Shown here piece after piece: positions 9,938-39,692 of a stretch of DNA of 53,929 bases. The stretch lies in sequence record SRR20825006_749; one strand, written 5' to 3'. Under the pieces are notes generated by a model. It worked only from the letters and a program-made list of their open reading frames with translations, did not search any database and was not told the DNA's origin. A program made the position numbers and the translations under genes. The first letter of the stretch is position 1. Each line of letters begins with the position of its first letter.

Positions 9938-10258
9938 GTGAAGCCGAATTTCTTTGTCACAATCAGTTTGCTTGTCTGCATGGTTTTTGCGACTGGTGCT
10001 TCGGCTTTTTTGCATTTGAACGAGCATCAGTATTCCGGTTCTGACCATCATCATTCAGCCGATTCTGAACACCAGCATGCCAATGGAACCACGCATGAAG
10101 CTGATCATGCCCATCATTTCAATCTGCATGTGGTGGGTGACCTGGTTGAGCATGACAGTATCAGCTTTATCAAGTCAGCTAATCTCACCTCCGGCGAAGT
10201 CATCACCCCGTTGGTATCACGCACCTACACGCCCCCTATTCCCCCACCCAACGCCTGA
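9938..10258 (+). CDS. Secreted His-rich leader protein (CzcI-like position) ending in PPIPPP; candidate arrest peptide
   Basis: GTG start, signal peptide ending in ASA, 13 His residues, C-terminus SRTYTPPIPPPNA; directly upstream of czcC. Confidence 0.75.
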   Translation: MKPNFFVTISLLVCMVFATGASAFLHLNEHQYSGSDHHHSADSEHQHANGTTHEADHAHHFNLHVVGDLVEHDSISFIKSANLTSGEVITPLVSRTYTPPIPPPNA

Positions 10259-10319
10259 ACCTGTAGCACTCAACCTTTTTTAACACGCTGAAAGCGTGAG
10301 AATTTGCTATGGGAATTCA
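10256..10319 (+). promoter_or_regulatory. Predicted RNA stem sequestering the czcC ribosome-binding site
   Basis: TGAA-CCTGTAGCA (10256-10268, begins at the leader stop codon) pairs with TGCTATGGG-aa-TTCA (10305-10319, contains the GGGA SD). Inner hairpin CACGCT-GAA-AGCGTG (10284-10298). Confidence 0.6.
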
Positions 10320-10321
10320 CC

Positions 10322-11596
10322 ATGAAAGTTTTAACTTTTTTGCGGTACACAGGACTTACTGTTGCCGTTTTTACCGGGCTGACCTCCGGTACGGCATTGG
10401 CTATTGAACCTGCTACCGCCGTTGATCGGACGCTGGCATCCAGTCCTGAACTGCAACTTTATCCTTATCATGTCCGGGCACTGGAAGCGGAATCATTACA
10501 GGCGGGTTTAAAGCCCAACCCGACTTTGGGTGTGGAACTGGAAAACGTCATGGGCACGGGGGATAGACGTGTTCTGGCCGGGCACGAACTCACCTTGTCT
10601 TTGAGTCAGGTACTGGAACTCGGAGGCAAGCGTGAGCGCCGGGTTGATGTCGTCGACAGACAATCAGCCGAATTACAGCGCGAGTTTGAAGTAAAGCGTC
10701 TGGATGTCGTTGCTGCCACGCTACGTGATTATTACGACGTCTTGCGTTTGCAACAGCTGCTGGAATGGAACCAGCGCCGCATTGCCTCTGAACAAGCTGC
10801 ACTACAGGTGATTCAAAAACGGGCCAATGCCGGCGTCGTTGGTGAAGCTGACCTGATGCGGATGCAGCTTCGCCTGGCCAAGTCAGAGTCCAAGCAGCAG
10901 ACACTCAATGCTCAGCATGAGCAGGCACTCAGAAGACTGGCTGCCAACTGGGCACAGGAGCCTGACTTCAACTCAGTGGATGGCAATATGGCCCGCCTGC
11001 CGGTCTTACCCGATGCCGCGCAACTTGAACAGGCTCTGCTTGAAACGCCGGATTATCTGCTGATCGTCGCCCAGACCCGAATCAATGAGGCGAGGCTATC
11101 ACTGGCTGAGGCAGAGCGCACAGCGAATGTCACTGTCGGCGCTGGAGTAAGGCGATTCGAAGCCAGTGATGATGTGGCTTTACTCTTCAATTTTTCCATG
11201 CCTTTGCAGTTCAATGACCGCAATCAGGGCAACATCGCCCGTGCACAGGTGCAATACCAGGAAAAACTGGCTCACCAGGAACTGCTGAAGACCCGGCTTG
11301 AGATCGCACTGAGCCGGATTCGGGCAACGATGCAGAATAACCTGGAGCAGGAAAAGCGCCTCAAACAACAACTTGAACCGGTAGCTCATTCTCTGCTCCA
11401 GGAAGTTGAGCGTGGATACAAGCTGGGTATCTATAACGTACTGCAATGGGTCGATGCGCAGGATGAGCTGTATGCCATAGAACGCAACATTATCGAAGCA
11501 CAGTACGCCATTCATCTGCAGTTTCTGGAACTGGAAAGACTCAGCGGCATGAGTCTGGTTACTTACGCCTCTTCCATCGCCGCTGATAAGGAATAA
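10322..11596 (+). CDS. czcC: TolC-family outer-membrane factor of a heavy-metal RND system
   Basis: Signal peptide, LSQVLELGGKR and MPLQFNDRNQGNI motifs; ATG at 10322 after GGGA. Confidence 0.88.
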   Translation: MKVLTFLRYTGLTVAVFTGLTSGTALAIEPATAVDRTLASSPELQLYPYHVRALEAESLQAGLKPNPTLGVELENVMGTGDRRVLAGHELTLSLSQVLELGGKRERRVDVVDRQSAELQREFEVKRLDVVAATLRDYYDVLRLQQLLEWNQRRIASEQAALQVIQKRANAGVVGEADLMRMQLRLAKSESKQQTLNAQHEQALRRLAANWAQEPDFNSVDGNMARLPVLPDAAQLEQALLETPDYLLIVAQTRINEARLSLAEAERTANVTVGAGVRRFEASDDVALLFNFSMPLQFNDRNQGNIARAQVQYQEKLAHQELLKTRLEIALSRIRATMQNNLEQEKRLKQQLEPVAHSLLQEVERGYKLGIYNVLQWVDAQDELYAIERNIIEAQYAIHLQFLELERLSGMSLVTYASSIAADKE

Positions 11597-11601
11597 ACAA
11601 C

Positions 11602-12822
11602 ATGAAATTTTATTTATTTTTACTGGCCCTGCTTTTTAATGCTTCTGTCTATGCCGCGGGCGGCCATGGTCATGATGACGCCGGGCATGAAGCGCCACCG
11701 GAAGGACCGCACGGCGGACGATTGTTGCAGAGTGATGACCTGAATCTTGAACTCACTATTTTTGAATCCGGTATTCCACCGGAAATGCGGATATTTCCCT
11801 ATCAACCTGATGGCAACCCGATTGCTCCGGAACAGATTGAAATGACCGTCACCCTCAACCGGACCGGGGGAGAGCAGGATCTGATCGACTTTACACCTGA
11901 AAACGACTACCTGTTGGGCGATCTGGAAATTGTTGAACCCCATTCGTTTGAAGTGGAAGTCTCTGCCAACTATCAGGATAAAAATTACCACTGGCACTTT
12001 GAGAGCTATGAGGGCCGTGCGGAAATTCCGGATCGCTTGCTGGCACTCTCAGGGGTCGAAACGGAAACCGCTGGCCCACAGACGATAACGCTGACCAAGA
12101 CTGTTTACGGCATTATCAGTAAAGCAGAAGACAGCGTATTTCATGTTCATGCCCCCTACCCCGGCATCGTTCAGTCGGTACAGGTCAACACTGGCGATAA
12201 AGTCAAAAAAGGCCAGCGTCTGCTGACCGTACTCAACCAGCAAACTTTGCAGACCTATAGCGTGACCAGCCCTGCTGCCGGTGAAATCACACAGCGTCCT
12301 GTTAAAAAAGGTGACCACACTGATATGGGCACCTTAGTTGAAGTCAGTGACTTATCCAAAGTCTGGGTTGAAATGTCGATGTTTCCACAGGATATCGAAG
12401 CGATCTCAAAAGGCATGAAGGTCAAAGTCAGTGATTTACATGGCGAACAATCGGCCGAGACTGAACTCAATTACCTGTCTCCACAGATGACCGGTGGCCA
12501 TATCGCCCGCGCCAGAGCCACGCTGAAAAACGCTGAGGGTAACTGGCGGCCCGGCATGCATGTGATTGCCAGGGTGGTCACCGAGAAAATCGAGGTCCCT
12601 TTGGCAGTCAGACGCTCTGCCTTACAGACATTTCGTGAAATGCCAGTGGTGTTTGCCCGATTCGGCAATGTGTTTGAGGTGAGAATGGTGCAGCTGGGAC
12701 AGCAGGACGATGAATACATTGAAGTCACCGGCGGACTGAAGCCCGGCACCGATTATGTCACTCAAAACAGCTATCTGCTCAAGGCCGAAGTCTTGAAAGA
12801 TGGCGCCAGCCACGACCACTAG
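11602..12822 (+). CDS. czcB: Heavy-metal RND periplasmic adaptor
   Basis: His-rich N-terminus, EGPHGGRLL, WRPGMHV and C-terminal GASHDH. Confidence 0.88.
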   Translation: MKFYLFLLALLFNASVYAAGGHGHDDAGHEAPPEGPHGGRLLQSDDLNLELTIFESGIPPEMRIFPYQPDGNPIAPEQIEMTVTLNRTGGEQDLIDFTPENDYLLGDLEIVEPHSFEVEVSANYQDKNYHWHFESYEGRAEIPDRLLALSGVETETAGPQTITLTKTVYGIISKAEDSVFHVHAPYPGIVQSVQVNTGDKVKKGQRLLTVLNQQTLQTYSVTSPAAGEITQRPVKKGDHTDMGTLVEVSDLSKVWVEMSMFPQDIEAISKGMKVKVSDLHGEQSAETELNYLSPQMTGGHIARARATLKNAEGNWRPGMHVIARVVTEKIEVPLAVRRSALQTFREMPVVFARFGNVFEVRMVQLGQQDDEYIEVTGGLKPGTDYVTQNSYLLKAEVLKDGASHDH

Positions 12823-15969
<3,147 letters not shown>

Positions 15970-15980
15970 GGATTGAGACT

Positions 15981-16577: not shown

Positions 16578-17915
16578 TTGCAGCGCCAAGCATCTTCTCC
16601 CAGCGACCAACACACCGAACCCGGCTCACCGGAATATATGGGCCGCCGCCGGCGGCTGCGTGCCTGTCAGGAATGTGACTGGGTGGTTGCTTTACCGGCA
16701 CTGAAGTCGGGCGAGGCAGCGGTGTGCCCTCGCTGTCATCACATCCTGGTCAAGCGTCATTTCCGCCCGGTGCAGCGAAGTATGGCTTTTGCGCTCAGTG
16801 CCCTGATTGCACTGCTGTTGTCGGTCAATTACCCCTTTGTCAGTTTTGCTGCGCTGGGCGTTGGCCAGAATATTCAACTCAGTCAGACAGCCACACAGTT
16901 ATTAAGCTTTGATCAGCCCTTGATGGCAATCCTGGTGTCGTTGACTATTGTGATACTACCGGCGCTTTATTTGATCAGTGTCATCTGGTTACAAGCGGGC
17001 TTGTTGCGCGCTGTGCCGCTAGGCTACAGCCAGCCGATTGCCCGTTCACTGAAACATCTGCATCCCTGGATGATGGCCGATGTGTTTATTATCGGGGCGC
17101 TGGTCAGTTTGTTTAAGGTTTCCAGTGCTGCGGATGTCACGCTCGGCGTCGGTTTCTGGGCATTTTGCAGTTTTGCGATTTTATTATTACTGACCATGCG
17201 CTCGCTTGATGATGACTGGTTGTGGTTTTCTATTGCCGGCGAGCCACTTGCGCCGGAAGGGACACAGACCGGACAGACGGCCGCCTCACAGCAGCTCACG
17301 GGCTGTTCTACCTGCGGCCTATTGCAACGGCTGCCCGATCAGGGACAGGCATTTTGTGAGCGCTGTGGTGAGCGATTGCGTCAACGTCTGCCGCAGTCAT
17401 TGCAAAGGACCTGGGCCTTATTAATAACAGCCTGCGTGCTGTATATCCCGGCAAACATCTACCCCATCATGCATACCACCCGGCTTGGGCAAACTCAGCC
17501 TAATACCATTATTGGTGGTGTGGTGGATCTGATTAATGGCGGCTCCTGGCCGATTGCCCTCATCATTTTTACCGCCAGCATTATCGTCCCTGTGGGCAAG
17601 ATTCTGGCGCTGGGCTGGCTTTGTCTGCGGGTAGGGAAAAGCAGCGAGATCAGGCACCGAAGCCGGATTCGCCTTTACCGGGTTATCGAGTTTATCGGCC
17701 GCTGGTCGATGGTTGATGTCTTCGTCGTGGCGATACTGGTCGCTTTGATCCGCGCCGGCAATTTAATGTCTATCACGCCAGGACCGGCTGCACTGTCCTT
17801 TGCCCTGGTGGTAATATTAACGATGCTGGCTGCTATCAGTTTTGACCCCAGACTGATTTGGGATACACCCGCCGAACAATCGAAACACGTTTTCAAGGAT
17901 CCGCTCCATGAGTGA
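16578..17915 (+). CDS. pqiA: Paraquat-inducible protein A (start codon uncertain)
   Basis: Two sets of CxxC pairs, PWMMADVF, YIPANIYPIM and IGRWSMVDVFVV. Confidence 0.92.
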   Translation: MQRQASSPSDQHTEPGSPEYMGRRRRLRACQECDWVVALPALKSGEAAVCPRCHHILVKRHFRPVQRSMAFALSALIALLLSVNYPFVSFAALGVGQNIQLSQTATQLLSFDQPLMAILVSLTIVILPALYLISVIWLQAGLLRAVPLGYSQPIARSLKHLHPWMMADVFIIGALVSLFKVSSAADVTLGVGFWAFCSFAILLLLTMRSLDDDWLWFSIAGEPLAPEGTQTGQTAASQQLTGCSTCGLLQRLPDQGQAFCERCGERLRQRLPQSLQRTWALLITACVLYIPANIYPIMHTTRLGQTQPNTIIGGVVDLINGGSWPIALIIFTASIIVPVGKILALGWLCLRVGKSSEIRHRSRIRLYRVIEFIGRWSMVDVFVVAILVALIRAGNLMSITPGPAALSFALVVILTMLAAISFDPRLIWDTPAEQSKHVFKDPLHE

Positions 17916-19578
17916 CACCGGTTCAGCCGATCAGCCGCAAAACACTGATTTACACAGGGCAAAAACGGTCAAGGCTTCCCGCTTATCACCGATTTGGATT
18001 ATTCCGGTGGTCGCCGCTTTGATTGGTGCCTGGCTGGTTGTCGATAATTATCTGCATACTGGTCCGCTGGTGACTTTGACCATGTCCAATGCCGAGGGCA
18101 TTGAAGCCGGTAAAACCCGAATCAAAACCCGCAATGTGGATATCGGGCGTGTTGAAGAAGTGAAATTGTCTGAGGACCTCAGCCATGCATTAATCATGGC
18201 ACGTATTAATCACGATGCCGAAGATATGCTGGTTGAAGACACCCGCTTCTGGGTCGTGAAACCGCGTATCAGCCGTGAGGGTATCAGTGGTTTCGGCACC
18301 GTTTTATCCGGTGCCTATATCCAGCTCTACCCTGGCGATTCCGAGCAGCAGCAGCGTCGGTTCGAGGTACTGGAACAACCGCCGGTCGCACTGGATGGCA
18401 CAGAAGGGATGCGCATTAAACTGGTCAGCCAACTCGGTAACTCGCTGCGGATTGGCGATCCGGTGACCTATCAGGGTTATACCGTCGGTCGAGTGGAAAC
18501 GGTCGAGTTTGATAAAGCATCGCTGCAGGTGAATCACCAGCTGTTTATCGAACAGCCCTATGACGCCCTGATTAACAGCAACACACGTTTCTGGTCAGCC
18601 AAGGGGGTGAATCTTGAACTCAGTTCCACCGGTTTTGAAGTCAATATCGCGTCTCTGGAATCACTGATAAGCGGTGGTGTGACTTTTGGTGTACTGGAAG
18701 ACTTACCTGCAGGCCCGGTTAATCCGGAGCGGACATTTCAATTATTCTCCAATGAAGAAGCCGCCCGTCAGGGGATGTTCAGTGACTCTCTTGAATACGT
18801 GCTGCTGGTCGAGGATACAGTGCGCGGTCTCAGTGAAGGCGCCCCGGTGGAATTTCGTGGCATTCGGGTCGGTACCGTCAAGGAAGTACCGTGGCGCTTT
18901 ACCTCACCGGAACGGCGTATCCGTGAAAACTTCGCCATTCCAGTCTTGATTAGCATTGAGCCGCAACGCCTGGGTGGTCAGGACAAAGTCGATCTGGAAG
19001 ACTGGCGTGAAAGGCTGGAAAACATCGTCAGCAATGGTCTCCACGCCACGCTCAAATCCGGCAACCTGCTCACCGGTGCTTTGTTTGTGGATCTGAATTT
19101 TCAGCGTGAAGATGCTGAGAAGCAGGTGGCAGAAACCTTTGAAGACCGGCTCGTTATTCCCACCACGCCGACCGGGCTGGCACAAATCGAGCTGAAGGTT
19201 TCCAGTCTGCTGGATAAACTGAACGCCCTGCAGGTAGAGCCGATTCTTAAAGGCATGGATGAGAGTATGCAGCAATCCGAGACGCTGTTACGGGAAGTTC
19301 GAGACTTAACAGCGAGCATCAAGCAGTTGATCAATAATCCCGAAATACAACAGGTGCCGGGCAATATCAATCAAACCCTGGCCGAATTACGGGAAGCAAT
19401 TAATGGTTTGTCGCCTGAGTCCCAGGCTTATCAGGAGCTGAATAAGACGCTGCAAAGTCTGGAAACCCTGCTGCGTGATTTGCAGCCCCTGGCCCGGACG
19501 TTAGGTGAACAGCCTAATGCTCTGATCTTCAACCCGCCTGCGAGCGATGATCCACAGCCGCCGGCAGCCAAACCTTAG
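17908..19578 (+). CDS. pqiB: MCE-domain intermembrane transport protein PqiB
   Basis: SPIWIIP, TRFWVVKPRI, VRGLSEGAPVEFRGI and GNLLTGALFVDL; three MCE domains plus helical tail. Confidence 0.93.
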   Translation: MSDTGSADQPQNTDLHRAKTVKASRLSPIWIIPVVAALIGAWLVVDNYLHTGPLVTLTMSNAEGIEAGKTRIKTRNVDIGRVEEVKLSEDLSHALIMARINHDAEDMLVEDTRFWVVKPRISREGISGFGTVLSGAYIQLYPGDSEQQQRRFEVLEQPPVALDGTEGMRIKLVSQLGNSLRIGDPVTYQGYTVGRVETVEFDKASLQVNHQLFIEQPYDALINSNTRFWSAKGVNLELSSTGFEVNIASLESLISGGVTFGVLEDLPAGPVNPERTFQLFSNEEAARQGMFSDSLEYVLLVEDTVRGLSEGAPVEFRGIRVGTVKEVPWRFTSPERRIRENFAIPVLISIEPQRLGGQDKVDLEDWRERLENIVSNGLHATLKSGNLLTGALFVDLNFQREDAEKQVAETFEDRLVIPTTPTGLAQIELKVSSLLDKLNALQVEPILKGMDESMQQSETLLREVRDLTASIKQLINNPEIQQVPGNINQTLAELREAINGLSPESQAYQELNKTLQSLETLLRDLQPLARTLGEQPNALIFNPPASDDPQPPAAKP

Positions 19579-19598
19579 CTGGAGCCACATCTACTGTG

Positions 19599-20168
19599 AT
19601 GACATTGAAGCCTTATCTCACTGCCCTTTTTATTGTTCTGTTGAGCGCCTGTGCCAAACAGGCGGTGGACAAGCAGCATTATTTTTTGCCGGCACCAGAC
19701 GGTATTGCAGAGTCTGCAGATAAGCTGGAGACAAAACCTCTGCTGCAAATCAGTGCAGTACAGCTGGCTGATTTTCTGGATAAATCCGGTCTGGTGCTAC
19801 AGTTGGATGACATCACGCTGAACCAGGCGAAAAACCATGTCTGGGCTGAAGATTTGCGTCGGCAAATCAATCGGGGTTTGCAGGCGCGCCTTAATCGTCA
19901 ACAGCAACCTTATACCGTGGTCGGACCGCAGACAGCAGCGGATTGGCGTGTATCATTTGAAATTCATGCCTTCCATGGCCGTTATGATGGACTGGCGCTG
20001 ACCAGTGGCCAGTGGCAGCTGAAAAACCAGCAAGGTGAAATAGTGCAGATTAAACGCTTTGAGATAGAGACTGAACTTAATCAGTCCGGCTACCCTGCCC
20101 TGGTCAGAGCGCTGGGTGAGAACCTCGACAAACTGGCTACACAAGTGACTGAGCAGCTGCAGCTATAA
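19599..20168 (+). CDS. pqiC: PqiC-family lipoprotein
   Basis: Lipobox LSAC, LADFLDKSGLVLQ and HVWAEDL; follows pqiB. Confidence 0.88.
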   Translation: MTLKPYLTALFIVLLSACAKQAVDKQHYFLPAPDGIAESADKLETKPLLQISAVQLADFLDKSGLVLQLDDITLNQAKNHVWAEDLRRQINRGLQARLNRQQQPYTVVGPQTAADWRVSFEIHAFHGRYDGLALTSGQWQLKNQQGEIVQIKRFEIETELNQSGYPALVRALGENLDKLATQVTEQLQL

Positions 20169-20220
20169 AGTGAACGACATTACATTATGTTTCAATCTGT
20201 TACCACAAAAGGAAATCCAT

Positions 20221-20730
20221 GTGACTCCAGAGGAAATTGAATTATATAAAGACGCAATAAAAATCGGCGTTCCAGCTATTGTTGGTCTTTTCGCGGGTCT
20301 TATTCCTTACTTAATTGAGCGTAAAAAAGTCTCAGCCCAAACAGTTATCGAGAGCGAAAGAGCTCGAAGAGAAATAATTATTAGTTTTTCTGATGCACTT
20401 TCAAAATATATCGGAAGCTCTTCAGCTTACATCTCGTATTTGCTATCTTCAGAATTTAATGGCGGAGACGAATGGCGTGAGCGACTAACCGATTCAGCCT
20501 CAAAAATGCTAGAAGGTGAGGTGGATCGAACAAGAGCTAAAGCACTCTCTGGGATTATAGGAAACGCTGATGTGGTTGATTCTCTCCTAAAGTTTGACGA
20601 GTGCGTCAGCGATGTCATTAGCCTACTCGCTCATCCTCGGAGGCCAAGTGATGAAGAAAAAGAACTGTCGCTAAAAAAAATGAAAGAACATGAAAAATCT
20701 CTTTTACATACCTTGGGTAAGCTCCTCTGA
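20221..20730 (+). CDS. Hypothetical single-pass membrane protein, AT-rich
   Basis: GTG at 20221 after AAGGA; N-terminal TM helix (IGVPAIVGLFAGLIPYLI) followed by a helical region; codon usage differs visibly from neighbours. Confidence 0.65.
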   Translation: MTPEEIELYKDAIKIGVPAIVGLFAGLIPYLIERKKVSAQTVIESERARREIIISFSDALSKYIGSSSAYISYLLSSEFNGGDEWRERLTDSASKMLEGEVDRTRAKALSGIIGNADVVDSLLKFDECVSDVISLLAHPRRPSDEEKELSLKKMKEHEKSLLHTLGKLL

Positions 20731-20746
20731 AAAAACTCAACCTATC

Positions 20747-20766
20747 ATCGCCTGTGCGCGGGCGAT
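20747..20766. terminator. Hairpin between convergent genes
   Basis: ATCGCCTG-TGCG-CGGGCGAT; no clear U tract. Confidence 0.35.
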
Positions 20767-20773
20767 TAGTACG

Positions 20774-21424
20774 TTAGATCTCATCGACCGATTTGATTTC
20801 GTCTGATGACCAGTTGTTAATCGCTGCCTCCACGCTGCCGTGGCGACTGACTGCACCATCAAACTGATTCATGTAAACCAGTCCCAGGTTCACCCCGTCC
20901 AGAATGATGTTATGCACCTGCCAGGGCTTGCTAATGTCTTTTCTGCCCATGGCATAGTCAACCGAGTAAATCCTGTTGTTACCGGTCTGCGCTTTCATTT
21001 TGATGTAAGCCCGGTTGTCACTTTGCGGACTGAAGTCATCGGGCAACGGCAGCACCTCAATGCTTTTGACTTCAAAGGTTTGGAAGCTTTTCATATAGAG
21101 CCGGGACAAGCTGCGTTTGAAAGCAGCCGAAAACTCCTGTTTCTGCTCCTGAGTCGCTTGCTTGCCATGCTTGCCCATCACACCGCGGGCAATGGCATCA
21201 AAATCCACAACCGGTTCCAGCACCTGGAACAAGTCATCCGCCATCTCCTGAGTAATCTGGCTTTCTTCCAGCGTCTGGTGCTCTTTGATAATATCCAGCA
21301 CTTCATCAGTCGATTCCTGGATGATTTGTCTGGGGTTGTTATTGGCCTGCTCGGCGCTGGCAGAGAGCCCAAAGAACAGCAGGCATGACATTAAAACCAG
21401 ATGGAAAAAAGTCGCTTGTCGCAT
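20774..21424 (-). CDS. MlaC/Ttg2D-family periplasmic lipid-binding protein
   Basis: Signal peptide, VDFDAIARGVMG and WQVHNIILDGVNLGLVYMNQF (MlaC C-terminal pattern). Confidence 0.85.
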   Translation of the reverse strand: MRQATFFHLVLMSCLLFFGLSASAEQANNNPRQIIQESTDEVLDIIKEHQTLEESQITQEMADDLFQVLEPVVDFDAIARGVMGKHGKQATQEQKQEFSAAFKRSLSRLYMKSFQTFEVKSIEVLPLPDDFSPQSDNRAYIKMKAQTGNNRIYSVDYAMGRKDISKPWQVHNIILDGVNLGLVYMNQFDGAVSRHGSVEAAINNWSSDEIKSVDEI

Positions 21425-21459
21425 AAATTTTTATCCCTTTTCCTTAATGAGTATTGCAA

Positions 21460-23922
21460 TCAATCAGTCAGTTTTTTACTGCCCTGAGTTCGCGCTTTGT
21501 CTTTTGACTGATAAGTCAGAATCAGCAAGCCGGGCAGAATTGTCAGATTGGCCGTTAATGCCAGCAGCATCGCCAGCGCCGTCATCAGGCCGAAATAGAC
21601 GCTGGGTATGAAGTTGGAAAAGGCCAGCACCGAGAAGCCGATAATAACGGTGATTGAGGTGTAATAAATCGCATTACCTATGCTCTGGTGACTATGACTG
21701 ACCGCTGTTCTGACATTCTGGCTGGCGGCATATTCCTTCCTGAATCGGTGCAGATAATGAATCGCATCATCGACGCCGATGCCGATAATGATGGCGGCAA
21801 TGGTAATAGTCATTACATCCAGCGGTATGCCCATATAGCCCATCAGTCCCAGTGCCGTGGCGGCTGCCAGTACGTTGGGAATCAGCCCCAACACGGCCAG
21901 CGTCAGCGATCGGAGCAGCAGCAGAAACATCACCAGGGTGGCGAGAATCACAAAAAGCAGTGTTGATGTCTGGGAATCAAACAGGTGCTGCAGCATCCCG
22001 TTAAACAACACGGCCATGCCAGTGATCCGGACATTCTCCGGTTCAAACCCCAGCTCATTAACCGCATGATTTTCGATATCAGCAATCAAGCCTTCGATGG
22101 TGTAATCGGGCACGGTTTCATGCAGCCGTAAGCTAATCCGCATCATGCCGCTTTCCGGCGAGGCGTAGGGCTCAATCAAATCATGATAAACACGCTCGGG
22201 CATGGCCTTGAGTGCCGTGACCAATTCGACTGGGCCGAGTGGTTCACCATTGTTGTAGGTCTGAGCAACCTGTTCCAGATTTTCAAGAGAGATGATTTTA
22301 CCGACTGCCTCTTTACTCTCAAGATAATCGTGCATCTCACGCAGATATTGAATCTTGTTGGGGGTGAACCAGTAGAGTCTGGCGTTGCTGTCCTCAGCTC
22401 CCGTGCTGAAAAAACTGCTCTCTTCCTGCTCGGCTTCCTTATAGGGCGGGAATTTCAGAATGATATCCATCGGCATAGTACCGCCCAGGTTTTTATCGAT
22501 AAACTCCAGTCCTTTGTGAATTTCGGTGTGGTCACGGAAATACTCGACAAAGCGGTTATCCATGCTGAGCCGACCAATGCCCAGCGCAGAAACCACAAAG
22601 GTAATCAACATCAGGGCCAGAATGAGCCGGGTATGATTAACTGCCAGGCCGCTGAGCATTTGCGTAATCCGCGGTTCGTCATGAAGACTGGCACGATCTC
22701 CGCCTCTGGGCAGTTGCAGAAGGATCCCGGCAAACAAGGCATAAGTGACCAGAAAAGAAATCAGAATGCCGATGCTCATGATCCAGCCGAAATCCATCAC
22801 CGGCACGATATCGCTGGTCACCAGAGAGCCGAAAGCGACCATGGTGGTCAGTGCCATATAGACACACGGGGCCAGCTTATCCTTCATCGTCTCCAGCACC
22901 AGATCCTGATGCGGCATGTCGGCGTTTTTTGCCCCCAGCTCGCGGTAACGGACAATCAAATGAATCGCGAAGGAAATGCTGAAGATGGTCAGCAGGGAAA
23001 TATAGTTCGATGAAACCACGGTGGTGGGCTGCTGTAAAAACCCCAGGATGCCGGTGGTCAGGAGAATAGTGACGCCTGTACTCGCTAATGGAAACAGCAC
23101 CCAGCGCAGTTGTCTGAAAAGCCAGAACAACATGGCCGAAATAATGGCAATCACAATCGCACCGAAAATCACGACATCCTGTTTGACGTAACTGATCATG
23201 TCGGCAGCTATCATCGGGATGCCACCCAGGTAGGCCACCACGTTATCACTCAGATCATCGCGAACGGCACGGATATCGGCGATTAACTGTTCCCTGTCCT
23301 GCAGATGCTGGCTGTAGATCTGTTGATAACGCGTTTCGACTGATGCCAGCTGTTCCCGTTGCTGTGCTGTCGGTTGTTCAATAGCGCGTAACTGGCGGCG
23401 TTCCTGTCTTAATTCGGCGAGTTGCTGATTTTGCTTTAACTGAATACGTATGGCGGTAGTTTGGCCGTCCTCAGAGATAAGCAGGTTGCGAAACAGCGGG
23501 CTTTGAGTCAGTTCCTGTCGCGCCAAGCCCAGATCAACATCGTCCGACAGCAAAGTGCGGTATCCGGTTGCAAGCTCAGATACCGGCACCGGCGGACTTT
23601 GCAGCAACGGTGCTTCAAGCAGCGAATCCACCGAGCTGACACCTTTCAGCTGTTCCAACTCCGCTACCAGCTGTTGCAGCTTTTCAATACTCGCCGGGCT
23701 GATCAGCGGCCGTGCGGTCGGCTTATAGGTCAGTACCAGAAAGCCCTCCCCACCAAATTGTTCGCTCACATCGCGGTAATAGGCGAGATCCGGGTCACCT
23801 TCGGCGACCAGTGTGTCTTCCGACGCATCAAAGCGGAAGTCCTTGATGTAATAGCCGGCAACAAGACACAGGCCAACTATCAGAAAAATCAGGTAGCGCG
23901 AATAATTGAAGCTTTTTTTCAT
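21460..23922 (-). CDS. MMPL/RND-family lipid transporter
   Basis: Two repeats of TM plus large periplasmic loop plus five TM helices; FDASEDTL, IHLIVRYRE and GIGVDDAIHYLHRF. Confidence 0.88.
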   Translation of the reverse strand: MKKSFNYSRYLIFLIVGLCLVAGYYIKDFRFDASEDTLVAEGDPDLAYYRDVSEQFGGEGFLVLTYKPTARPLISPASIEKLQQLVAELEQLKGVSSVDSLLEAPLLQSPPVPVSELATGYRTLLSDDVDLGLARQELTQSPLFRNLLISEDGQTTAIRIQLKQNQQLAELRQERRQLRAIEQPTAQQREQLASVETRYQQIYSQHLQDREQLIADIRAVRDDLSDNVVAYLGGIPMIAADMISYVKQDVVIFGAIVIAIISAMLFWLFRQLRWVLFPLASTGVTILLTTGILGFLQQPTTVVSSNYISLLTIFSISFAIHLIVRYRELGAKNADMPHQDLVLETMKDKLAPCVYMALTTMVAFGSLVTSDIVPVMDFGWIMSIGILISFLVTYALFAGILLQLPRGGDRASLHDEPRITQMLSGLAVNHTRLILALMLITFVVSALGIGRLSMDNRFVEYFRDHTEIHKGLEFIDKNLGGTMPMDIILKFPPYKEAEQEESSFFSTGAEDSNARLYWFTPNKIQYLREMHDYLESKEAVGKIISLENLEQVAQTYNNGEPLGPVELVTALKAMPERVYHDLIEPYASPESGMMRISLRLHETVPDYTIEGLIADIENHAVNELGFEPENVRITGMAVLFNGMLQHLFDSQTSTLLFVILATLVMFLLLLRSLTLAVLGLIPNVLAAATALGLMGYMGIPLDVMTITIAAIIIGIGVDDAIHYLHRFRKEYAASQNVRTAVSHSHQSIGNAIYYTSITVIIGFSVLAFSNFIPSVYFGLMTALAMLLALTANLTILPGLLILTYQSKDKARTQGSKKLTD

Positions 23923-30616: not shown

Positions 30617-30631
30617 CGACCGGCCTCGCCT

Positions 30632-32729: not shown

Positions 32730-32864
32730 AAAAAAGATTGAATCGTGATAATCAGGCCTTAATCCAAGCCTGCTAGATTTAGAGCAGCGATGATGTGAAA
32801 CAGATCAAAGAACAGTGGTTGCCCTGTCAGCATTTGTTTATTTCAAAGCTAAAGTCGACAGGTT

Positions 32865-33230: not shown

Positions 33231-33236
33231 GACAAA

Positions 33237-33749: not shown

Positions 33750-34095
33750 TTTTGCCTCCTTTCTCTCAAACCTCTATTTCATCCCAACATGTTTATGCAT
33801 GGACTTCAAAATCTGACTGCAGACTTGGATGATTTGGATGAGCAGCTTTTATTTGTTACGGTTCGTTTATGGTGCTTACAAACTAAGACAGCCTTACAAG
33901 CGCCATGTTCACAAAATCTGCTTTCAAAGAGATGCATGACTGGATTAAGGTCAGCAGAGAAAGCAAGTTCCTGCATTGGCTGAACCTTAGCCAGAATTGT
34001 CTTGAAAAATTTGTTGAGTCGTTCTGTATCGTTCGGACTCTTTGTAAGCTTTCTAGACGAAACTTGTCTTTTCAAACAACAGAGAGGTGATCGCC

Positions 34096-34551: not shown

Positions 34552-34569
34552 ACTCGCTGCCTTTTTATT

Positions 34570-34593
34570 CAGGGGAGAGCAAGCTCTCCCCTG
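34570..34593. terminator. Perfect GC-rich hairpin between convergent genes
   Basis: CAGGGGAGAGC-AA-GCTCTCCCCTG; no classical downstream U tract on either strand. Confidence 0.45.
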
Positions 34594-34601
34594 CCTCAGG
34601 C

Positions 34602-35057
34602 TTACTTGCCCAGTTTGCCTTTTATTTTATTGCATAAGGCAATCAACTGCGCGGCTTCCTCTTGTGTGAGGCCGGTAGCGCAGAGCGCTTCTTTAGCTAC
34701 CTGCTCGGCCTGCCGGGCGAACGCCTGACCTTTGGCGGTCAATGTAATCGCCATTGTACGTTCATTTCCCGGTATCCGGTTTCGTTGCAGATAACCGCGG
34801 TTTTCCAGCGTTTTCAGCATCGGTGTTAGTGTCGCTTTGCTGAGTCCGATAAGTCGACCAAGCTCAGTGACAGAAACCGCATCCTGTTGCCACAGCCCCA
34901 TCATCACCACAAATTGTGAATACGATAGCTGATGAGGTGACAATAACCGTGTATAAGCCTGGGTCACCACAGCACTGGTTGAGTACAAGGCATAACAGAC
35001 TTGTTCTGCTAATTTAGGCCCCATTGTGCCCTCATTTTTTAAAGTGGTACTTGACAT
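34602..35057 (-). CDS. MarR-family regulator, OhrR-like (alternative start at 35024)
   Basis: EQVCYALYS carries the OhrR sensing Cys; LSYSQFVVM, ATLTPMLKTLE and two C-terminal Cys residues. Confidence 0.88.
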   Translation of the reverse strand: MSSTTLKNEGTMGPKLAEQVCYALYSTSAVVTQAYTRLLSPHQLSYSQFVVMMGLWQQDAVSVTELGRLIGLSKATLTPMLKTLENRGYLQRNRIPGNERTMAITLTAKGQAFARQAEQVAKEALCATGLTQEEAAQLIALCNKIKGKLGK

Positions 35058-35108
35058 GCATATTTAACCGGCATAACGTTAGGTTGCGAACAGTTTGTTT
35101 GCGAACGA
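35051..35108 (+). promoter_or_regulatory. Sigma-70 promoter and tandem operator for hthp-nnrS
   Basis: TTGACA (35051-35056), 17-nt spacer, TAACGT (35074-35079). TTGCGAAC occurs twice just downstream, each within an imperfect palindrome. Confidence 0.6.
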
Positions 35109-35123
35109 TAAGGAGAGAATAGC

Positions 35124-35432
35124 ATGAAATCCATTATTTATCTGATCCCATTAATGCTCGCCGTATGGCTGCCACAGGCTGCCAGCGCCGAAGACATGAA
35201 AGCCAGTGACGACTATATGCCTTCGCTAATCACGGAAACCCCATATGAAGGACGCCAACTTGCGATCAAGATTGTTCGCAAAACCATTGGCACGATTCAG
35301 ACTGATACTGCAGCCAAACACCGGGTCAGGGCCAAATATGCTGAAGATCCGGCCCTGCTGATGAATGCAGCTGAATTAGTCGCTATTGAGTTCAAAACTA
35401 TTGCTATCGCCAACGATTACTGGCGTGACTGA
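35124..35432 (+). CDS. Hexameric tyrosine-coordinated heme protein (HTHP) with signal peptide
   Basis: PSLITETPYEG..LAIK..R, RAKYAED (heme Tyr) and EFKTIAIANDYW; N-terminal signal ending in ASA. Confidence 0.8.
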   Translation: MKSIIYLIPLMLAVWLPQAASAEDMKASDDYMPSLITETPYEGRQLAIKIVRKTIGTIQTDTAAKHRVRAKYAEDPALLMNAAELVAIEFKTIAIANDYWRD

Positions 35433-35442
35433 TTTGACCTGT

Positions 35443-35476
35443 CCGGGCAGGCTGTCAGCGGGCTGCCCGGTCTTTT
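35443..35476 (+). terminator. Intrinsic terminator-like hairpin between hthp and nnrS
   Basis: CCGGGCAG...CTGCCCGG followed by TCTTTT. Confidence 0.55.
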
Positions 35477-35499
35477 ACTGATGATTCAGGTAGCGAGTA

Positions 35500-36678
35500 A
35501 TGTCAAAAAAATCACCTCATCCTGCTGTATTGGATCTGGCTTTCAGACCCTTTTTCCTGCTTGGCGCTGTTTTCAGCATTATTGCTTTAGTGTTGTGGGG
35601 CGCCAGTCTGCATGGCTGGCTCAGTCACGCTTATCATGGATATAGCCAGCTCTGGCACGGTCATGAAATGTTGTTCGGATTTGTTGCCGCCATTCTGGTG
35701 GGCTTTTTGCTCACAGCGGTGCAGAATTGGACAGGGCTGCGCTCGGCTCACGGCAACAGATTGCTACTGCTGATAATGCTGTGGCTGAGTGGGCGACTCG
35801 CCGTCTGGTTTACTGCTGAGATGCCATGGTGGCTGGTCATTGTCCTGGACAGCAGTTTTCTGCTCTACGCAGCCTGGCTGCTTGGCTCCCTGCTAATTAA
35901 AAAACAGCAGAAACGCAATTATTTTGCGGTACTGGCCATACTCCTGCTGACCGCCGACAACGTGGTGTTTCATCTTGGTGTCGCGGCCGGTCATCTGCAA
36001 ACAGCGACTTATGCCCTACATAGCGTGATATTGCTGATCACTTTGCTGATGACGGTTATTGGCGGTCGGGTAATCCCGATGTTCACCGGCAATACCACTC
36101 AGATCCCACCGCGAAAACGAATTCAATGGCTGGATAAATCCGGCTTAGCCTTATTGTGGGCCATGGTGGTTATCTTTCTTTTCCAGCTTCAGTTTTATCT
36201 GGCAGAGAGCCTTCTTGCAGTCATTTTTGTTTTTGCAGCCGTGCTTATCGCCGCGCGCTGCGCGCTTTGGCGGCCTATGTCGACTTGGCCTCACCCGCTG
36301 CTCTGGTCTTTGCACCTGAGTTACTGGTTTATCCCCCTGGGCTTATTGCTGATTGCCTGCCACTATGCCGGTATGGCGATCAGTTTGAGTACGGCCTTGC
36401 ATGCACTCACTGTTGGCGCTATGGGCGGTCTTATTCTGAGCATGATGTCCCGTGTCTCACTAGGTCATAGCGGCAGACCGATTGTGCCGGCCCCTGCTAT
36501 CAGGCTGGCGCTGGCTTTGGTGCTGCTCTCGGCATTATCCCGTGTCGGAATCATATTAATCGAACCGGCGCTCAGTATCTGGGCCCGGTGGTTGAGTATC
36601 GGACTGTGGGTTATCGCCTATGGATTATTTTTATTCCGCTATACCGGGATTCTGACTTCACCCAGAGCGGATGGTTAA
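35500..36678 (+). CDS. nnrS: NnrS heme-copper membrane protein (NO tolerance)
   Basis: AFRPFFLLG, WHGHEMLFGF, GFLLTAVQNWTG, IGGRVIPMFT, HALTVG and RVSLGHSGR. Confidence 0.95.
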   Translation: MSKKSPHPAVLDLAFRPFFLLGAVFSIIALVLWGASLHGWLSHAYHGYSQLWHGHEMLFGFVAAILVGFLLTAVQNWTGLRSAHGNRLLLLIMLWLSGRLAVWFTAEMPWWLVIVLDSSFLLYAAWLLGSLLIKKQQKRNYFAVLAILLLTADNVVFHLGVAAGHLQTATYALHSVILLITLLMTVIGGRVIPMFTGNTTQIPPRKRIQWLDKSGLALLWAMVVIFLFQLQFYLAESLLAVIFVFAAVLIAARCALWRPMSTWPHPLLWSLHLSYWFIPLGLLLIACHYAGMAISLSTALHALTVGAMGGLILSMMSRVSLGHSGRPIVPAPAIRLALALVLLSALSRVGIILIEPALSIWARWLSIGLWVIAYGLFLFRYTGILTSPRADG

Positions 36679-36681
36679 TAA

Positions 36682-36714
36682 CGGAAACCGGACAAAGTCC
36701 GGTTCCGCGCTTTT
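36682..36714 (+). terminator. Terminator between convergent nnrS and secDF
   Basis: CGGAAACCGGAC-AAA-GTCCGGTTCCG followed by CGCTTTT. Confidence 0.6.
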
Positions 36715-36723
36715 AGTTTATTA

Positions 36724-39243
36724 TCAAGGCATTTCAGCCAGGCGGCGTTGCATTTCCTCCGCGCTGGGACGTAATTGTGACAGACCTTTCCGGCTACGGC
36801 GCTGGCCCAGAAAATACAGGATAGGCGCTGCAATAAACACTGACGAACTGGTGCCAATAACAATGCCGAACAGCATCGGCAAGGCAAAACTGGCCACCGC
36901 CGAACCCCCTGCTATTCCCATCGGTAATAAAGCCAGAAAAGTGGTGACTGAGGTAAATACCGTCCGGGTCAGCGTGGATGAAATACTTTCATTCATCAGC
37001 GTCATCATCGGCTTATCCGGATTGGCTCGCAGGTTTTCCCTGATGCGATCGAACACCACCACTTTGTCATTGACCGAGTAACCAATCAAAGCCAGTAAAG
37101 CCGCAACTGCAGTCAGATTGAACTCGACGCCGGTCAAAGCAAAAAAGCCGATGGTTTTGGTCAGATCCAGGGCGATAGTTAATGTTGCTGCAATGGCAAA
37201 ATGTGATTCAAAACGGATGGCGAGATAAGCCAGCATGCCGAAGCCGGCCAGCAAAATGGCCAGAATCGTATCGTCCGCGAAGCCACTACTGACCTTGGGG
37301 CCAACCATATCCACTTTGGGAAAGGCAGCATCAGCCTGTACTGACTGGACTGCCCTCTTCAGCGCATCAACCTGGGCGGAAGTTGCTGCCGGATCCTGAT
37401 TTTCTGCCGGTAAACGTACCAGAAAATCGCCCTGCTCGGCCGATTCCTGAATCGATGCCTGTGCCATATCATGCTGTTGTAATGACGCGCGTATGTTTTC
37501 GACAGAGAGCTGACTGGCCTGGACTTCAACCAGGGTGCCGCCGGTAAAATCAACACCGTACTTCAGCCCGGGCTGAATAAACAGCACAATCGCTGCCAGT
37601 GATAACAAAGCTGAAGCCGTCAGTCCGGCAAAGCGACTGCGCAGAAAGTTGAGATTACGGCTGCTGAGCTTGTCGAGCATGGCAAAGCCATTGATCCTAA
37701 GCGGTTTCTTTTCCCGGCCTTTTATCGACCACTCCATCAACAGCCGCGTCACTGCTATCGCGGTAAACATCGAGGTCAGCAGACCAATACCGATGGTGAC
37801 GGCAAACCCTTGTACCGGACCACTCCCGAACATGAACAGCAAACTGACCGCGATGAGCGTGGTCAGGTTGGAATCAATAATCGTGGTGTAAGCTTTATCG
37901 AAGCCCTCATGCATGGCTTTCCAGGCCGATTTACCCCGTCTCGATTCTTCGCGGATACGTTCATTGATCAGAATGTTGGCATCGACCGCCATCCCCAGGG
38001 TCAGAATGATGCCGGCGATACCCGGCAAGGTCAGCGTGGCGCCGAGCAGACTCAGAATACCGAATACCAGGCCCATGTTAATGGCCAGGCCCACACAGGC
38101 AATCAGACCCCAGCGTCCATAAATTCCAATCATAAAGGCAATCACCAGCGCCGCACCGATTAAACCGGTGCTCAGGCCCATGGCAATCGCATCACTACCA
38201 AGATCGGGACCAACACTGCGTTCTTCCATCACAAGCAGCGGCACTGGCAAAGCACCGGCTCTTAGTAACAAAGCCAGTTCGGCGGCTTCTTCGGTGGTGA
38301 AACCACCGCTGATCTCCCCACTGCCACCCCCGATTTCACTACGAATCACCGGTGCGGTAATCACTTTATCATCGAGGACGATGGCGAGCGGCCTGCCGAT
38401 ATTGTCGCGGGTCATCTTACCGAATAGTTTCGCGCCTTCATTATCGAGTTTGAAAGTCACCACCGGTTCGCCACTGTCCGGGTTAAAACTGGTCTGGGCA
38501 TCACGAATATGCTGGCCCTCCATCGCCACCCGTTTTTCCAGCCTGAACTGCTGTTTACCATCCTGGCTAGGCAGGGTAATTGTGCCTTCACCACCTGTGT
38601 CAGCAGCATCCCAGTGGAAAGTCATTTTGGCGGTGGTGCCCAGTAACTGGCGAATATCACTTGGATCCGCCACGCCAGGCATCTGTACCAGTATGCCGGC
38701 ATTGCCCTGGCGGGTAATGCTGGGATCAACCAGCCCGGTCTCATCCAGACGACGGCGTACCACTTCCAGACTGCGTTCAATGGCGTCGTTCATCACCGCC
38801 TTGAACCAGCTTTCAGTGAGTCTCAATTCAAGCTGGTTGCCGATGATTTCCAGCTCCAAGCGACGACTGCCATTGTTGTTGTCACGGGCCAAAGATTCAA
38901 CGATAGCCTCTACCGGCTTAATCGAGTCGCTGTTCCTGAGTATTAATTGCAGGCTGTCAGGTTGTATTAGCGGCTGATTGTAATAAATACCGGCATCACG
39001 AAGCTGGTCGGTCAGTTCATCTGCCAGTGTCTGGTATTGTTCCTCGATAAGCGCTTTGCTATCCGCTTCCAGCAACAAATGAGAACCACCCTGTAAGTCC
39101 AGCCCAAGCGATACATTGTTTTCGCTATACCAGGCGGGTAACTTGCTGGCGATTCTGTCAGGTAAAAGATTGGGAACCGCGCTCAGTAAACCGAGCACAA
39201 TTAACAGGCCATAAACGATGGCCCGCGTAGATAATGATTTCAT
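36724..39243 (-). CDS. secDF: Fused protein translocase subunit SecDF (accessory paralogue)
   Basis: LGLDLQGG, GPDLG and GMAVDANILINERIREE (SecD); GVDFTGG, GYSVNDKVVVFDRIREN and GTSSSVFIA (SecF), all in one 839-aa chain. Confidence 0.95.
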   Translation of the reverse strand: MKSLSTRAIVYGLLIVLGLLSAVPNLLPDRIASKLPAWYSENNVSLGLDLQGGSHLLLEADSKALIEEQYQTLADELTDQLRDAGIYYNQPLIQPDSLQLILRNSDSIKPVEAIVESLARDNNNGSRRLELEIIGNQLELRLTESWFKAVMNDAIERSLEVVRRRLDETGLVDPSITRQGNAGILVQMPGVADPSDIRQLLGTTAKMTFHWDAADTGGEGTITLPSQDGKQQFRLEKRVAMEGQHIRDAQTSFNPDSGEPVVTFKLDNEGAKLFGKMTRDNIGRPLAIVLDDKVITAPVIRSEIGGGSGEISGGFTTEEAAELALLLRAGALPVPLLVMEERSVGPDLGSDAIAMGLSTGLIGAALVIAFMIGIYGRWGLIACVGLAINMGLVFGILSLLGATLTLPGIAGIILTLGMAVDANILINERIREESRRGKSAWKAMHEGFDKAYTTIIDSNLTTLIAVSLLFMFGSGPVQGFAVTIGIGLLTSMFTAIAVTRLLMEWSIKGREKKPLRINGFAMLDKLSSRNLNFLRSRFAGLTASALLSLAAIVLFIQPGLKYGVDFTGGTLVEVQASQLSVENIRASLQQHDMAQASIQESAEQGDFLVRLPAENQDPAATSAQVDALKRAVQSVQADAAFPKVDMVGPKVSSGFADDTILAILLAGFGMLAYLAIRFESHFAIAATLTIALDLTKTIGFFALTGVEFNLTAVAALLALIGYSVNDKVVVFDRIRENLRANPDKPMMTLMNESISSTLTRTVFTSVTTFLALLPMGIAGGSAVASFALPMLFGIVIGTSSSVFIAAPILYFLGQRRSRKGLSQLRPSAEEMQRRLAEMP

Positions 39244-39316
39244 GCTAATCCTCGAAAAACGATTGAATTAAAACGCCGTCAGCTTCGCTGACAACGCAAA
39301 GTTTTTTGGGATTAAC
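39244..39316 (-). promoter_or_regulatory. Predicted RNA structure sequestering the secDF ribosome-binding site
   Basis: GUUAAUCC-CA-AAAAAC (39316-39301, includes the leader UAA) pairs with GUUUUU-CGA-GGAUUAGC (39260-39244, includes the GAGGA SD). Inner 11-bp hairpin at 39297-39273. Confidence 0.75.
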
Positions 39317-39692
39317 TAAGTGGTGGTGCTCTCAGATAAGGACGTAGATAGGCACAGTCGTCGAGCTGAGCAGAGAAAATCTCAGTGACTGATGAAACCG
39401 TATTCCGGCCTTTAACAGGGGCATGCCCGGCTGGATTAATGGCCTGATCGTCGGCTGAGTCGGAATCCGCTGAAGTCTGCCCTGATTGTTCAGACTTCAG
39501 GCTCAGCCTCAGTGAATTATCATGCAGCGCTGTCCGGGCATCCAGTCGTTTAACCAGACCCGTGCTGCTTTCCGTGTTGCCGGATTGAGCGTAGGAAATA
39601 ACCGGCAGCGATGCCAGTAACAAGGCAAAACACAAGACCCACAGCCGGGCGGCTATGTGACTGGTTGATGTGTCTTGTTGTTGGGGCGACAT
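39312..39692 (-). CDS. Secretion-monitoring arrest peptide candidate (signal peptide plus C-terminal RAPP)
   Basis: Hydrophobic signal ending in SYA, polar linker, C-terminus YLRPYLRAPPLS; ends 68 nt upstream of secDF. Confidence 0.8.
   Translation of the reverse strand: MSPQQQDTSTSHIAARLWVLCFALLLASLPVISYAQSGNTESSTGLVKRLDARTALHDNSLRLSLKSEQSGQTSADSDSADDQAINPAGHAPVKGRNTVSSVTEIFSAQLDDCAYLRPYLRAPPLS

Follow-up and report, generated by a model that had tools for sequence, protein, structure and literature searches.

Small exported leader peptides with proline-motif ends and a similar RNA layout precede two envelope operons in a Methylophaga-like DNA stretch

Sequence record SRR20825006_749 comprises 53,929 nucleotides (nt), and this whole stretch, referred to below as the window, carries two envelope-related operons, each preceded by a small open reading frame (ORF) for an apparently exported peptide with a proline motif at its end. 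The first of these leaders, ORF1, lies ahead of czcC, czcB and czcA on the plus strand, and the second, ORF2, precedes a fused secDF gene on the minus strand. The window looks like Methylophaga DNA: the nearest named homologues and loci bear that name. An earlier note on this DNA had described a common design at both loci—a signal peptide, a polar region, a proline motif close to the stop codon, and an RNA stem between the stop-codon region and the next gene's Shine-Dalgarno (SD) sequence—and had read it as a reusable regulatory architecture. A search of the literature on Methylophaga SecDF and on Methylophaga czcC/czcA returned no publication on these leader genes.

Two small exported reading frames precede czcCBA and a fused secDF

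ORF1 (9938-10258, plus strand) encodes a His-rich peptide of 106 amino acids (aa) from a GTG start, and ORF2 (39692-39312, minus strand) a peptide of 126 aa; neither matched a Pfam or NCBIfam family above cut-off. Both begin with a segment resembling a signal peptide, a call made from hydropathy and a look at the cleavage site only. In ORF1 this segment spans residues 1-23 (MKPNFFVTISLLVCMVFATGASA; 9938-10006, plus strand; top hydrophobic 12-mer 2.77) and ends in ASA|F, with the hydrophobic stretch and the AxA end conserved across 11 loci. The corresponding segment of ORF2 covers residues 1-35 (39588-39692, minus strand; top hydrophobic 12-mer 2.53), ends in SYA|Q and is conserved in relatives. 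The mature parts are polar and close to the 80-90 aa that had been proposed: 83 aa in ORF1 and 91 aa in ORF2, with grand averages of hydropathy of -0.65 and -0.62, respectively. Between the signal and the proline motif lie 78 aa in ORF1, and 87 residues separate the signal from the arrest-type site in ORF2. AlphaFold2 models were confident for an N-terminal helix only (residues 5-33 in ORF1 and 6-28 in ORF2; mean predicted local distance difference test scores of 59.8 and 52.3), and the middle parts of both peptides diverge within their families.

The end of ORF1 is its most conserved feature. The tail RTYTPPIPPPNA (10220-10255, plus strand) closes in PPIPPPNA-stop, with the PPP at 10241-10249, and relatives retain RxYxPPIPPPNA. 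A search for homologues yielded 41 sequences, and PPP followed by two further residues and the stop was found in 41 of the 42 sequences of the family set. The mature part contains 13 His and no Cys. A conserved His motif (DHAHHFNLHVVGDLVEH, residues 56-72; 10103-10153, plus strand) forms a putative metal site; H26, H30, H57, H59, H60, L63 and D68 are invariant across the family, F61, N62, H64, V70 and E71 nearly so, and the pattern H.HH..[LVI][HQ] occurs in 42/42 sequences. A profile search against 1.84 billion representatives returned 12 ORF1-family matches at an expectation (E) value of at most 0.001; among the 11 remote representatives fetched, 10 displayed the signal, the His motif and PPP two residues before the end, the eleventh being an unrelated repeat protein.

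The ORF1 start codon stands exactly 23 residues ahead of the A|F site in 11/11 loci (GTG in seven, TTG in three, ATG in one), which favours the longer version with its signal over the 92 aa given by many gene callers. The GTG or TTG start in 10 of the 11 loci (window position 9938 and its equivalents in L001-L010) comes with no evident upstream SD, a combination that suggests a deliberately weak initiation of the leader. In L006 (G004:C1:1531665-1532003), the ORF1 homologue shifts frame near its end, and the tail PPLPPPNA is found in another frame.

ORF2 ends in RPYLRAPPLS-stop (39315-39344, minus strand; RAPP at 39321-39332). This arrest-type tail is invariant in 6/6 proteins, i.e., ORF2 and five homologues of 54-98% identity, and RAPP followed by two codons and the stop recurs in all 10 locus sequences, among them L011, a near-identical copy of the window locus. 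Two remote loci, L018 and L019 (E about 1e-9), end in PPLRAPPLA-stop. The distribution of ORF2 is patchy, with six of 83 genomes of the family carrying it. A class-wide search matched four of 400 sampled genomes, and two of these matches were real and corresponded to known Methylophaga loci; the two others (E 0.002 and 0.008) were discarded as weak and located inside large ORFs. As a lead only, SecM and SecM_small were among the named clusters nearest to ORF2 in the ESM Atlas (0.91).

The proline motif thus stands two codons ahead of the stop in ORF1 as in ORF2, as the earlier note had claimed, and this placement is conserved in both families. The absence of obvious similarity between the two peptides was likewise borne out: hhalign profile comparison of the two leader families gave a probability of 0.3%.

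Pairing between the leader end and the downstream Shine-Dalgarno sequence

The ORF1 stop is separated from the czcC ATG (10322) by 63 nt and the ORF2 stop from the secDF ATG (39243) by 68 nt, and similar lengths recur in the related Methylophaga loci (60-65 nt in the 11 locus-1 sequences and 65-69 nt in the 10 locus-2 sequences, eight of which were folded for pairing probability). The predicted outer stem, joining the stop region to the SD, is present in the minimum free energy (MFE) folds of both loci, with z-scores of -2.60 for locus 1 and -2.86 for locus 2; in each case, one of 200 shuffles folds as well. RNAalifold, applied to both locus alignments, returned inner hairpins and no outer stems; for this reason, outer-stem pairing was evaluated both against a prescribed structure and sequence by sequence. 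A scan of the whole window against Rfam gave no match above gathering scores.

At locus 1 (plus strand), the 5′ arm consists of the stop UGA and the anti-SD sequence ACCUGUAGCA (10256-10268), and the 3′ arm (10305-10319) contains the czcC SD GGGAA (10311-10315) within a nearly invariant UAUGGGA. The probability that the SD is paired to the stop region is at least 0.67 in 10/11 sequences, and the stem core CCU:GGG is retained in 9-10 of the 11 loci. Between the arms lies the nested hairpin CACGCU-GAA-AGCGUG (CACGCTGAAAGCGTG; 10284-10298), which occurs once in the window. This hairpin is missing from the single-sequence MFE fold and is backed by the 11-locus alignment, where 96.4% of cells are paired and two of five pairs show compensatory changes.

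At locus 2 (minus strand), the arm GU-UAA-UCCC (39308-39316), comprising the last codon, the stop and an anti-SD, faces GAGGAUUAGC (39244-39253), which includes the secDF SD GAGGA (39249-39253); eight loci have this pairing. The SD is paired to the stop region with a probability of 0.68-1.00 in 8/8 sequences folded, and 0-27 of 200 shuffles of the arm reach the observed value. Moreover, L018 and L019 rebuild the SD pairing from other sequence and in another register (CCUCUAGC:GUUAGAGG). The nested hairpin (39273-39297) has 11 pairs around the core GUCAGC-GAA-GCUGAC (GTCAGCGAAGCTGAC; single occurrence in the window, 39278-39292); it is retained in relatives with two compensatory pairs, while its loop and tail vary. 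A second, weaker anti-SD, UUAAUUC (39265-39271), pairs with GGAUUAG in constrained folds in which the 5′ arm is occupied.

We also modelled the cost of opening the ribosome-binding site (RBS) when the leader end is masked. For the window sequence of locus 2, this cost fell from 10.8 to 6.1 and then 5.1 kcal/mol, and for L018 from 12.5 to 4.9 kcal/mol; a drop was obtained in 7/7 locus-2 and in 10/11 locus-1 sequences. In most locus-1 relatives, the ribosome has to stand one codon further along for the modelled effect. Of the two loci, locus 1 has the weaker evidence for its outer stem. As for expression, exact contigs in the RNA libraries of two studies match 39437-39596, 39277-39427 and 39099-39249, a weak hint of transcription over the ORF2-secDF region; they leave 39250-39276 uncovered, so that the leader and secDF are not bridged, and no inference is drawn from this gap.

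Both hairpins had been quoted with a GAA loop, and the two strings are indeed there. The loop itself does not hold as a common functional motif: it reads UCAAA, AGUCU, ACCCU or CACUC, among others, in relatives of locus 1, and GAG, AUG or AUUCUA in relatives of locus 2. Since loop sequences vary within both families, the GAA common to the window loci is a matter of chance.

Reuse of the design beyond the two loci

Within the window, a signal-like start together with PP in the last five residues was found in two of 21 free small ORFs (those outside larger ORFs), namely ORF1 and ORF2, and in 0/174 small ORFs of the reversed window. PP on its own is less telling, with seven of 200 mechanically called window ORFs carrying it in their last eight residues.

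A crude form of the genome scan that the earlier note had proposed was run on the related chromosome G004 (2.9 Mb) and recovered further leaders. The scan picked six of 1471 free small ORFs—and 16 of 10785 small ORFs on the reversed chromosome. The six picks comprised the ORF2 homologue, a Cys/His leader present in two copies, one leader ending in RAPPVFS-stop and two ordinary small membrane proteins; three of them, the ORF2 homologue and the two Cys/His copies ending in RPPKS-stop, share the same anatomy. Pairing was assessed for the 120 free small ORFs that have another gene 25-124 nt downstream. A probability of at least 0.7 that the SD is paired to the stop region was reached by 3/3 ORFs with signal and PP, as opposed to 17/117 others, which is more than chance would give. 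Two more leaders sit among those 17: the frame-shifted ORF1 homologue and one ending in RAPPHLSI-stop. Among ordinary junctions in 400 kb, two of 25 reached 0.7, and one of the two is in fact another leader with this construction, the third.

This third family (L032:12092-12451, minus strand; G004:C1:1692051-1692452, minus strand; two copies on the G004 chromosome) encodes 119 aa from an ATG; its start is signal-like, it carries the Cys/His motif ECCVLCMHCHCSHF and ends in MYRPPKS-stop, and it gave no Pfam match. In its spacer of 64 nt, AAAUCCUG and CAGGAUUU form a stem that encloses a nested hairpin, and an operon for an outer-membrane efflux protein (OEP), a membrane fusion protein (MFP) and a resistance-nodulation-division (RND) pump follows. 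At L098 (5462-5764, plus strand), an exported Cys/His ORF ends in RAPPHLSI-stop, with a 59-nt spacer and a probability of 1.00 that the SD is paired to the stop region; the downstream gene has TonB-receptor Pfam domains. At L070 (1343-1633, minus strand), an exported Cys/His ORF ending in RAPPVFS-stop precedes an ORF of about 716 aa whose N-terminus looks receptor-like by eye.

Across these leaders, a PP-to-stop distance of exactly two codons is frequent, and the overall range is two to four. The further leaders in G004, located before RND pumps and a TonB receptor, argue that the architecture is reused; of the earlier claim, this part stands on both conservation and the chromosome scan, whereas the GAA loops drop out as coincidence. 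The equal proline-to-stop distance and similar spacers also make the ORF1 and ORF2 loci suited to a leader swap.

Gene content around the leaders

The operon behind ORF1 (10322-15969, plus strand) consists of czcC (OEP; 10322-11596), czcB (MFP) and czcA (RND), with Pfam matches to OEP, HlyD_D23 and ACR_tran; czcC and czcB follow the leader in 10/10 related loci. Upstream, a gene for a COX1-family protein of 493 aa and an 80-aa family-less ORF occupy 8000-9726 (plus strand), ending about 210 nt before ORF1, and no further oxidase subunits adjoin the COX1-family gene. Another envelope-lipid cluster lies between the two leader loci (16578-23922), with pqiA, a MlaD-domain protein and a lipoprotein in a PqiABC-like arrangement and, on the opposite strand, mlaC and an MMPL/RND-type transporter.

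The gene behind ORF2 encodes a fused SecDF of 839 aa (36724-39243, minus strand; Pfam SecD_SecF_C and related; NCBIfam SecDF subfamily, 882.5 bits), and secDF follows the leader in 9/9 related loci. Among five genomes checked, the four with ORF2 (G001, G003, G004 and G072) have split secD and secF plus the fused secDF, and G005, in which ORF2 is absent, has the split pair only. The fused secDF is thus an accessory paralogue, an extra copy that co-occurs with ORF2. Directly upstream on the same strand lie copA (multicopper oxidase) and copB (39810-42347, minus strand), opposite a CusR/CusS-type two-component pair (42458-44546, plus strand). In five of nine related loci, copB precedes ORF2. Copper stress might be tied to the spare SecDF.

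A working model for both loci

The reading that we favour, at a probability of about two in three, is that each locus is a cis-acting switch and that the two belong to a single, already described kind: ORF2 would act as a RAPP-type secretion monitor and ORF1 as a CutF-like metal sensor. Starting from the anatomy, conservation and predicted pairing established above, the steps of stalling, relief by export, metal sensing and induction would run as follows. A small leader peptide destined for Sec export would be translated directly ahead of the regulated gene, and near its end the ribosome would meet a proline motif that is hard to polymerise—RAP|P for ORF2, PPP(N) for ORF1. On free mRNA, the last codon or codons, the stop and the bases beyond would pair with the SD region of the next gene, with the nested hairpin holding the arms together. 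A ribosome lingering at the proline motif would occupy the 5′ arm, so that the RBS opens more easily and the downstream gene is translated, and the pull of the Sec translocon on the nascent chain would end the pause. For ORF2, a stall with the P123 codon starting at 39326 and a footprint reaching to about +15 would cover 39316-39312, i.e., five of the nine bases of the 5′ arm; it is with these bases masked that the modelled RBS opening cost falls from 10.8 to 6.1 kcal/mol.

At locus 2, poor export would lengthen the pause and thereby induce the accessory fused SecDF. At locus 1, a divalent metal held by the His-rich part after export would make the pull harder, extend the pause at PPP and induce CzcCBA; judging from czcCBA, Zn, Co, Cd and Ni are the likeliest metals, ahead of Cu. 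The resemblance of the two loci would then probably reflect convergence on the same physical constraints and not common descent.

Several observations weigh against this reading, most of them at locus 1. The outer stem there shows no covariation over the 11 loci. Even after shuffling, the 5′ arm pairs with the SD at mean probabilities of 0.23-0.80; at most 10 of 200 shuffles reach the observed value in just three of 11 sequences, and another three of 11 do no better than their shuffles. Shuffled arms often pair as well because the C-rich Pro codons complement the G-rich SD. In the window sequence, modelled masking lowers the RBS opening cost only from 9.3 to 7.8 and 7.4 kcal/mol. If the second Pro occupied the P site, the ORF1 footprint would extend no further than the stop codon, and a ribosome one codon further on would be needed for most of the effect. 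Pauses at PPP are normally relieved by elongation factor P (EF-P). At locus 2, the hairpin UUAAUUC:GGAUUAG keeps the SD paired once the 5′ arm is masked, with a probability of being unpaired of 0.05-0.33 in six of eight sequences, and the window's inner hairpin has a terminator-like score. As for family membership, DUF2946 (PF11162) drew matches from more ORF1 relatives than any other family, though always below threshold (four of 42 relatives, best E 0.0037); ORF1 of the window had no match to that model, which was not found above cut-off in any of five Methylophaga genomes (0/5). Finally, the stalled CutF species was not directly visible in the 2023 study of that leader (PMC9973294).

An extended version of the model, which we regard as doubtful, can be put forward tentatively. 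One geometry, in which an exported leader has PP at two to four codons from its stop, the stop region carries an anti-SD and a nested hairpin lies in a spacer of 59-68 nt, may serve as a general envelope sensor in Methylophaga, with at least four unrelated leader families covering metal efflux (czcCBA and a second RND pump), metal uptake (a TonB receptor) and protein export (secDF2). The His-only ORF1 family would then be an independent invention outside DUF2946, extending CutF-type sensing from copper to Zn, Co, Cd or Ni. A secDF2 monitor, placed behind copA-copB in five of nine loci, would likewise tie spare export capacity to copper stress.

Alternative explanations

The best of the alternatives, which we nevertheless consider unlikely, is that ORF1 encodes an ordinary periplasmic metal-binding protein or a trans-acting regulator resembling CzcI, with a proline tail of structural or proteolytic significance and a stem that tunes operon stoichiometry. 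Its conserved His motif does look like a real metal site, and the RNA evidence is the weaker of the two at this locus. The nearest ESM Atlas clusters, leads only, bear the names cobalt transporter, CzcI (PF28244) and DUF2946 (scores 0.94-0.95), and the CzcI cluster (0.94) has 117/256 features in common with ORF1. A profile match to CzcI was not obtained at E of at most 10 in the local Pfam copy, the presence of the PF28244 model in that copy being unconfirmed. CzcI of Cupriavidus metallidurans, like ORF1, is small and encoded ahead of czcCBA; it is regarded as a regulator that senses metal, but it lacks a proline tail (PMC9973294). A folded protein would not explain why the exact ending of PPP, two codons and stop is the most conserved feature of ORF1 even in its remotest relatives; AlphaFold2 gave no confident fold past the signal helix, and spacer length, hairpin and SD pairing are conserved over the 11 loci.

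An improbable alternative places the control at transcription, with the nested hairpin acting as a terminator or attenuator, or with the leader gating Rho. Precedent exists in CruR, which represses via Rho-dependent termination and has an intergenic region of 162 nt (PMC9973294). The locus-2 hairpin, with 11 pairs and a U-rich tail, is called terminator-like, and U-rich tails also occur in L014 and L018/L019. The tails are not U-rich, however, in L012, L013 and L016, and a search of locus 1 for terminator-like sites found none. The conserved feature is the pairing of the SD to the stop region, which L018 and L019 rebuild from other sequence.

We consider it very improbable that the proline tails report EF-P or general translation capacity instead of export or metal. 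PPP and PP-containing motifs do depend on EF-P, and the induction of CutO in Rhodobacter is EF-P-dependent (bioRxiv 10.1101/2025.02.05.636593); conserved signal peptides at a spacing of 78 and 87 aa, and a conserved His motif, would be purposeless on such an account. Lastly, that the likeness is a coincidence is hardly credible: despite the background of stop-to-SD stems and terminal PP reported above and the fortuitous GAA loops, ORF1 and ORF2 alone combine signal and PP in the window, one of the two strongly paired ordinary junctions is itself a leader, and the conservation of tails and RNA layouts in both families, over homologous loci that are not recent copies (protein identities of 47% to 98%), largely refutes it.

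Comparison with known leader-peptide systems

Turning back to the two loci as switches, the closest precedents are already linked in print. RAPP-like upstream ORFs (uORFs) before secA and secDF have been catalogued by Fujiwara et al. 2024 (PMC10987492), who also mention CruR and CutF, and CutF has been compared with SecM, VemP and MifM by Ozturk et al. 2023 (PMC9973294), so that Sec monitors and metal-sensing leaders have been connected from both sides (PMC9973294, PMC10987492).

Four sequence features characterise the Sec-monitoring arrest peptides of the RQH family (PMC10987492, section 6), and ORF2 displays all of them: it is a family-less small uORF directly upstream of secDF, where the definition allows secA, secDF or yidC; it starts with a secretion signal (a transmembrane segment would also qualify), as indicated by hydropathy and an AxA-like end; its conserved C-terminus carries a RAPP-like motif, RAPP being present in L018 and L019 as well; and more than 30 residues (87) lie between signal and arrest site. 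RQH members include ApdA, ApdP and uDF_RQH_Enterobacterales, the last of which precedes secDF2 of Alteromonas naphthalenivorans (PMC10987492; Morici et al. 2024, PMC10951233), and ORF2 is likewise a uORF before an extra secDF. A conserved R-A-P-P tail with the rest divergent, a spacing above 30 aa, two stem elements, a masked SD and a patchy distribution are common to both. In ORF2, however, the SD pairs mainly with the stop region, and the resulting long-range stem has the first hairpin inside it. We found no sequence relation of ORF2 to the named groups; ORF2 was placed by these features and not compared by sequence. The main text of PMC10987492, a study that distinguishes 11 secDF groups besides orphans, has no occurrence of Methylophaga or its order. 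Upstream of Alteromonas secDF2, a uORF with an RGPP motif has two stem-loops, and its arrest induces secDF2 (PMC10987492); the weak second SD hairpin of ORF2 recalls this arrangement.

ORF1, in turn, resembles CutF of Rhodobacter capsulatus, which combines a signal peptide and a metal motif with a PPPRL end (residues 114-118), a stem-loop shielding the SD and an involvement of EF-P (PMC9973294; bioRxiv 10.1101/2025.02.05.636593). Both are shorter than 150 aa, with a Sec signal, a metal-ligand motif and PPP two residues before the end, and both stand upstream of metal-homeostasis genes across a short intergenic region. ORF1 also passes the rule-based filter for CutF-like proteins (PMC9973294), with its 106 aa, signal-like start, PPIPPPNA end and 63-nt spacer; the Cys and/or His motif of that filter is represented by its putative, His-only metal site. 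For a stem shielding the next SD, the picture is mixed: pairing is predicted in the window and at a probability of at least 0.67 in 10/11 loci, covariation is lacking, and 3/11 sequences do no better than shuffles. The OEP of RND pumps is the commonest downstream neighbour of CutF-like proteins (PMC9973294). ORF1 differs in having no Cys, in failing the DUF2946 model and in belonging to a very small family; furthermore, the main text of PMC9973294 links His-only clusters to HupE/UreJ genes, whereas ORF1 is associated with a pump. CruR of Bordetella pertussis, whose Cys/His-containing, exported uORF product ends with a RAPP tail and is encoded ahead of a TonB-dependent transporter (PMC9426467), has counterparts in two G004 leaders: those at L098 and L070 resemble it.

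The general scheme of an exported leader with C-terminal arrest, in which the stalled ribosome frees the SD, is also that of SecM-secA and VemP-secD2F2, although no sequence homology to SecM or VemP was shown. VemP and ORF2 additionally have an accessory SecDF in common. The VemP arrest sequence is not known to be RAPP-like.

Set beside these systems, the architecture is real and reusable, and it is already in print: concept and search strategy are both known, and ORF1 and ORF2 are new examples of it, not a new mechanism. The addition made here is modest and consists in a single genus applying the same geometry to several unrelated leader families. If the model is correct, sensing through the nascent chain of a stalled ribosome would belong to the routine, modular equipment of a marine methylotroph, beyond the few model species, and the His-only leader would offer a simple test of the CutF principle for zinc, cobalt or cadmium pumps.

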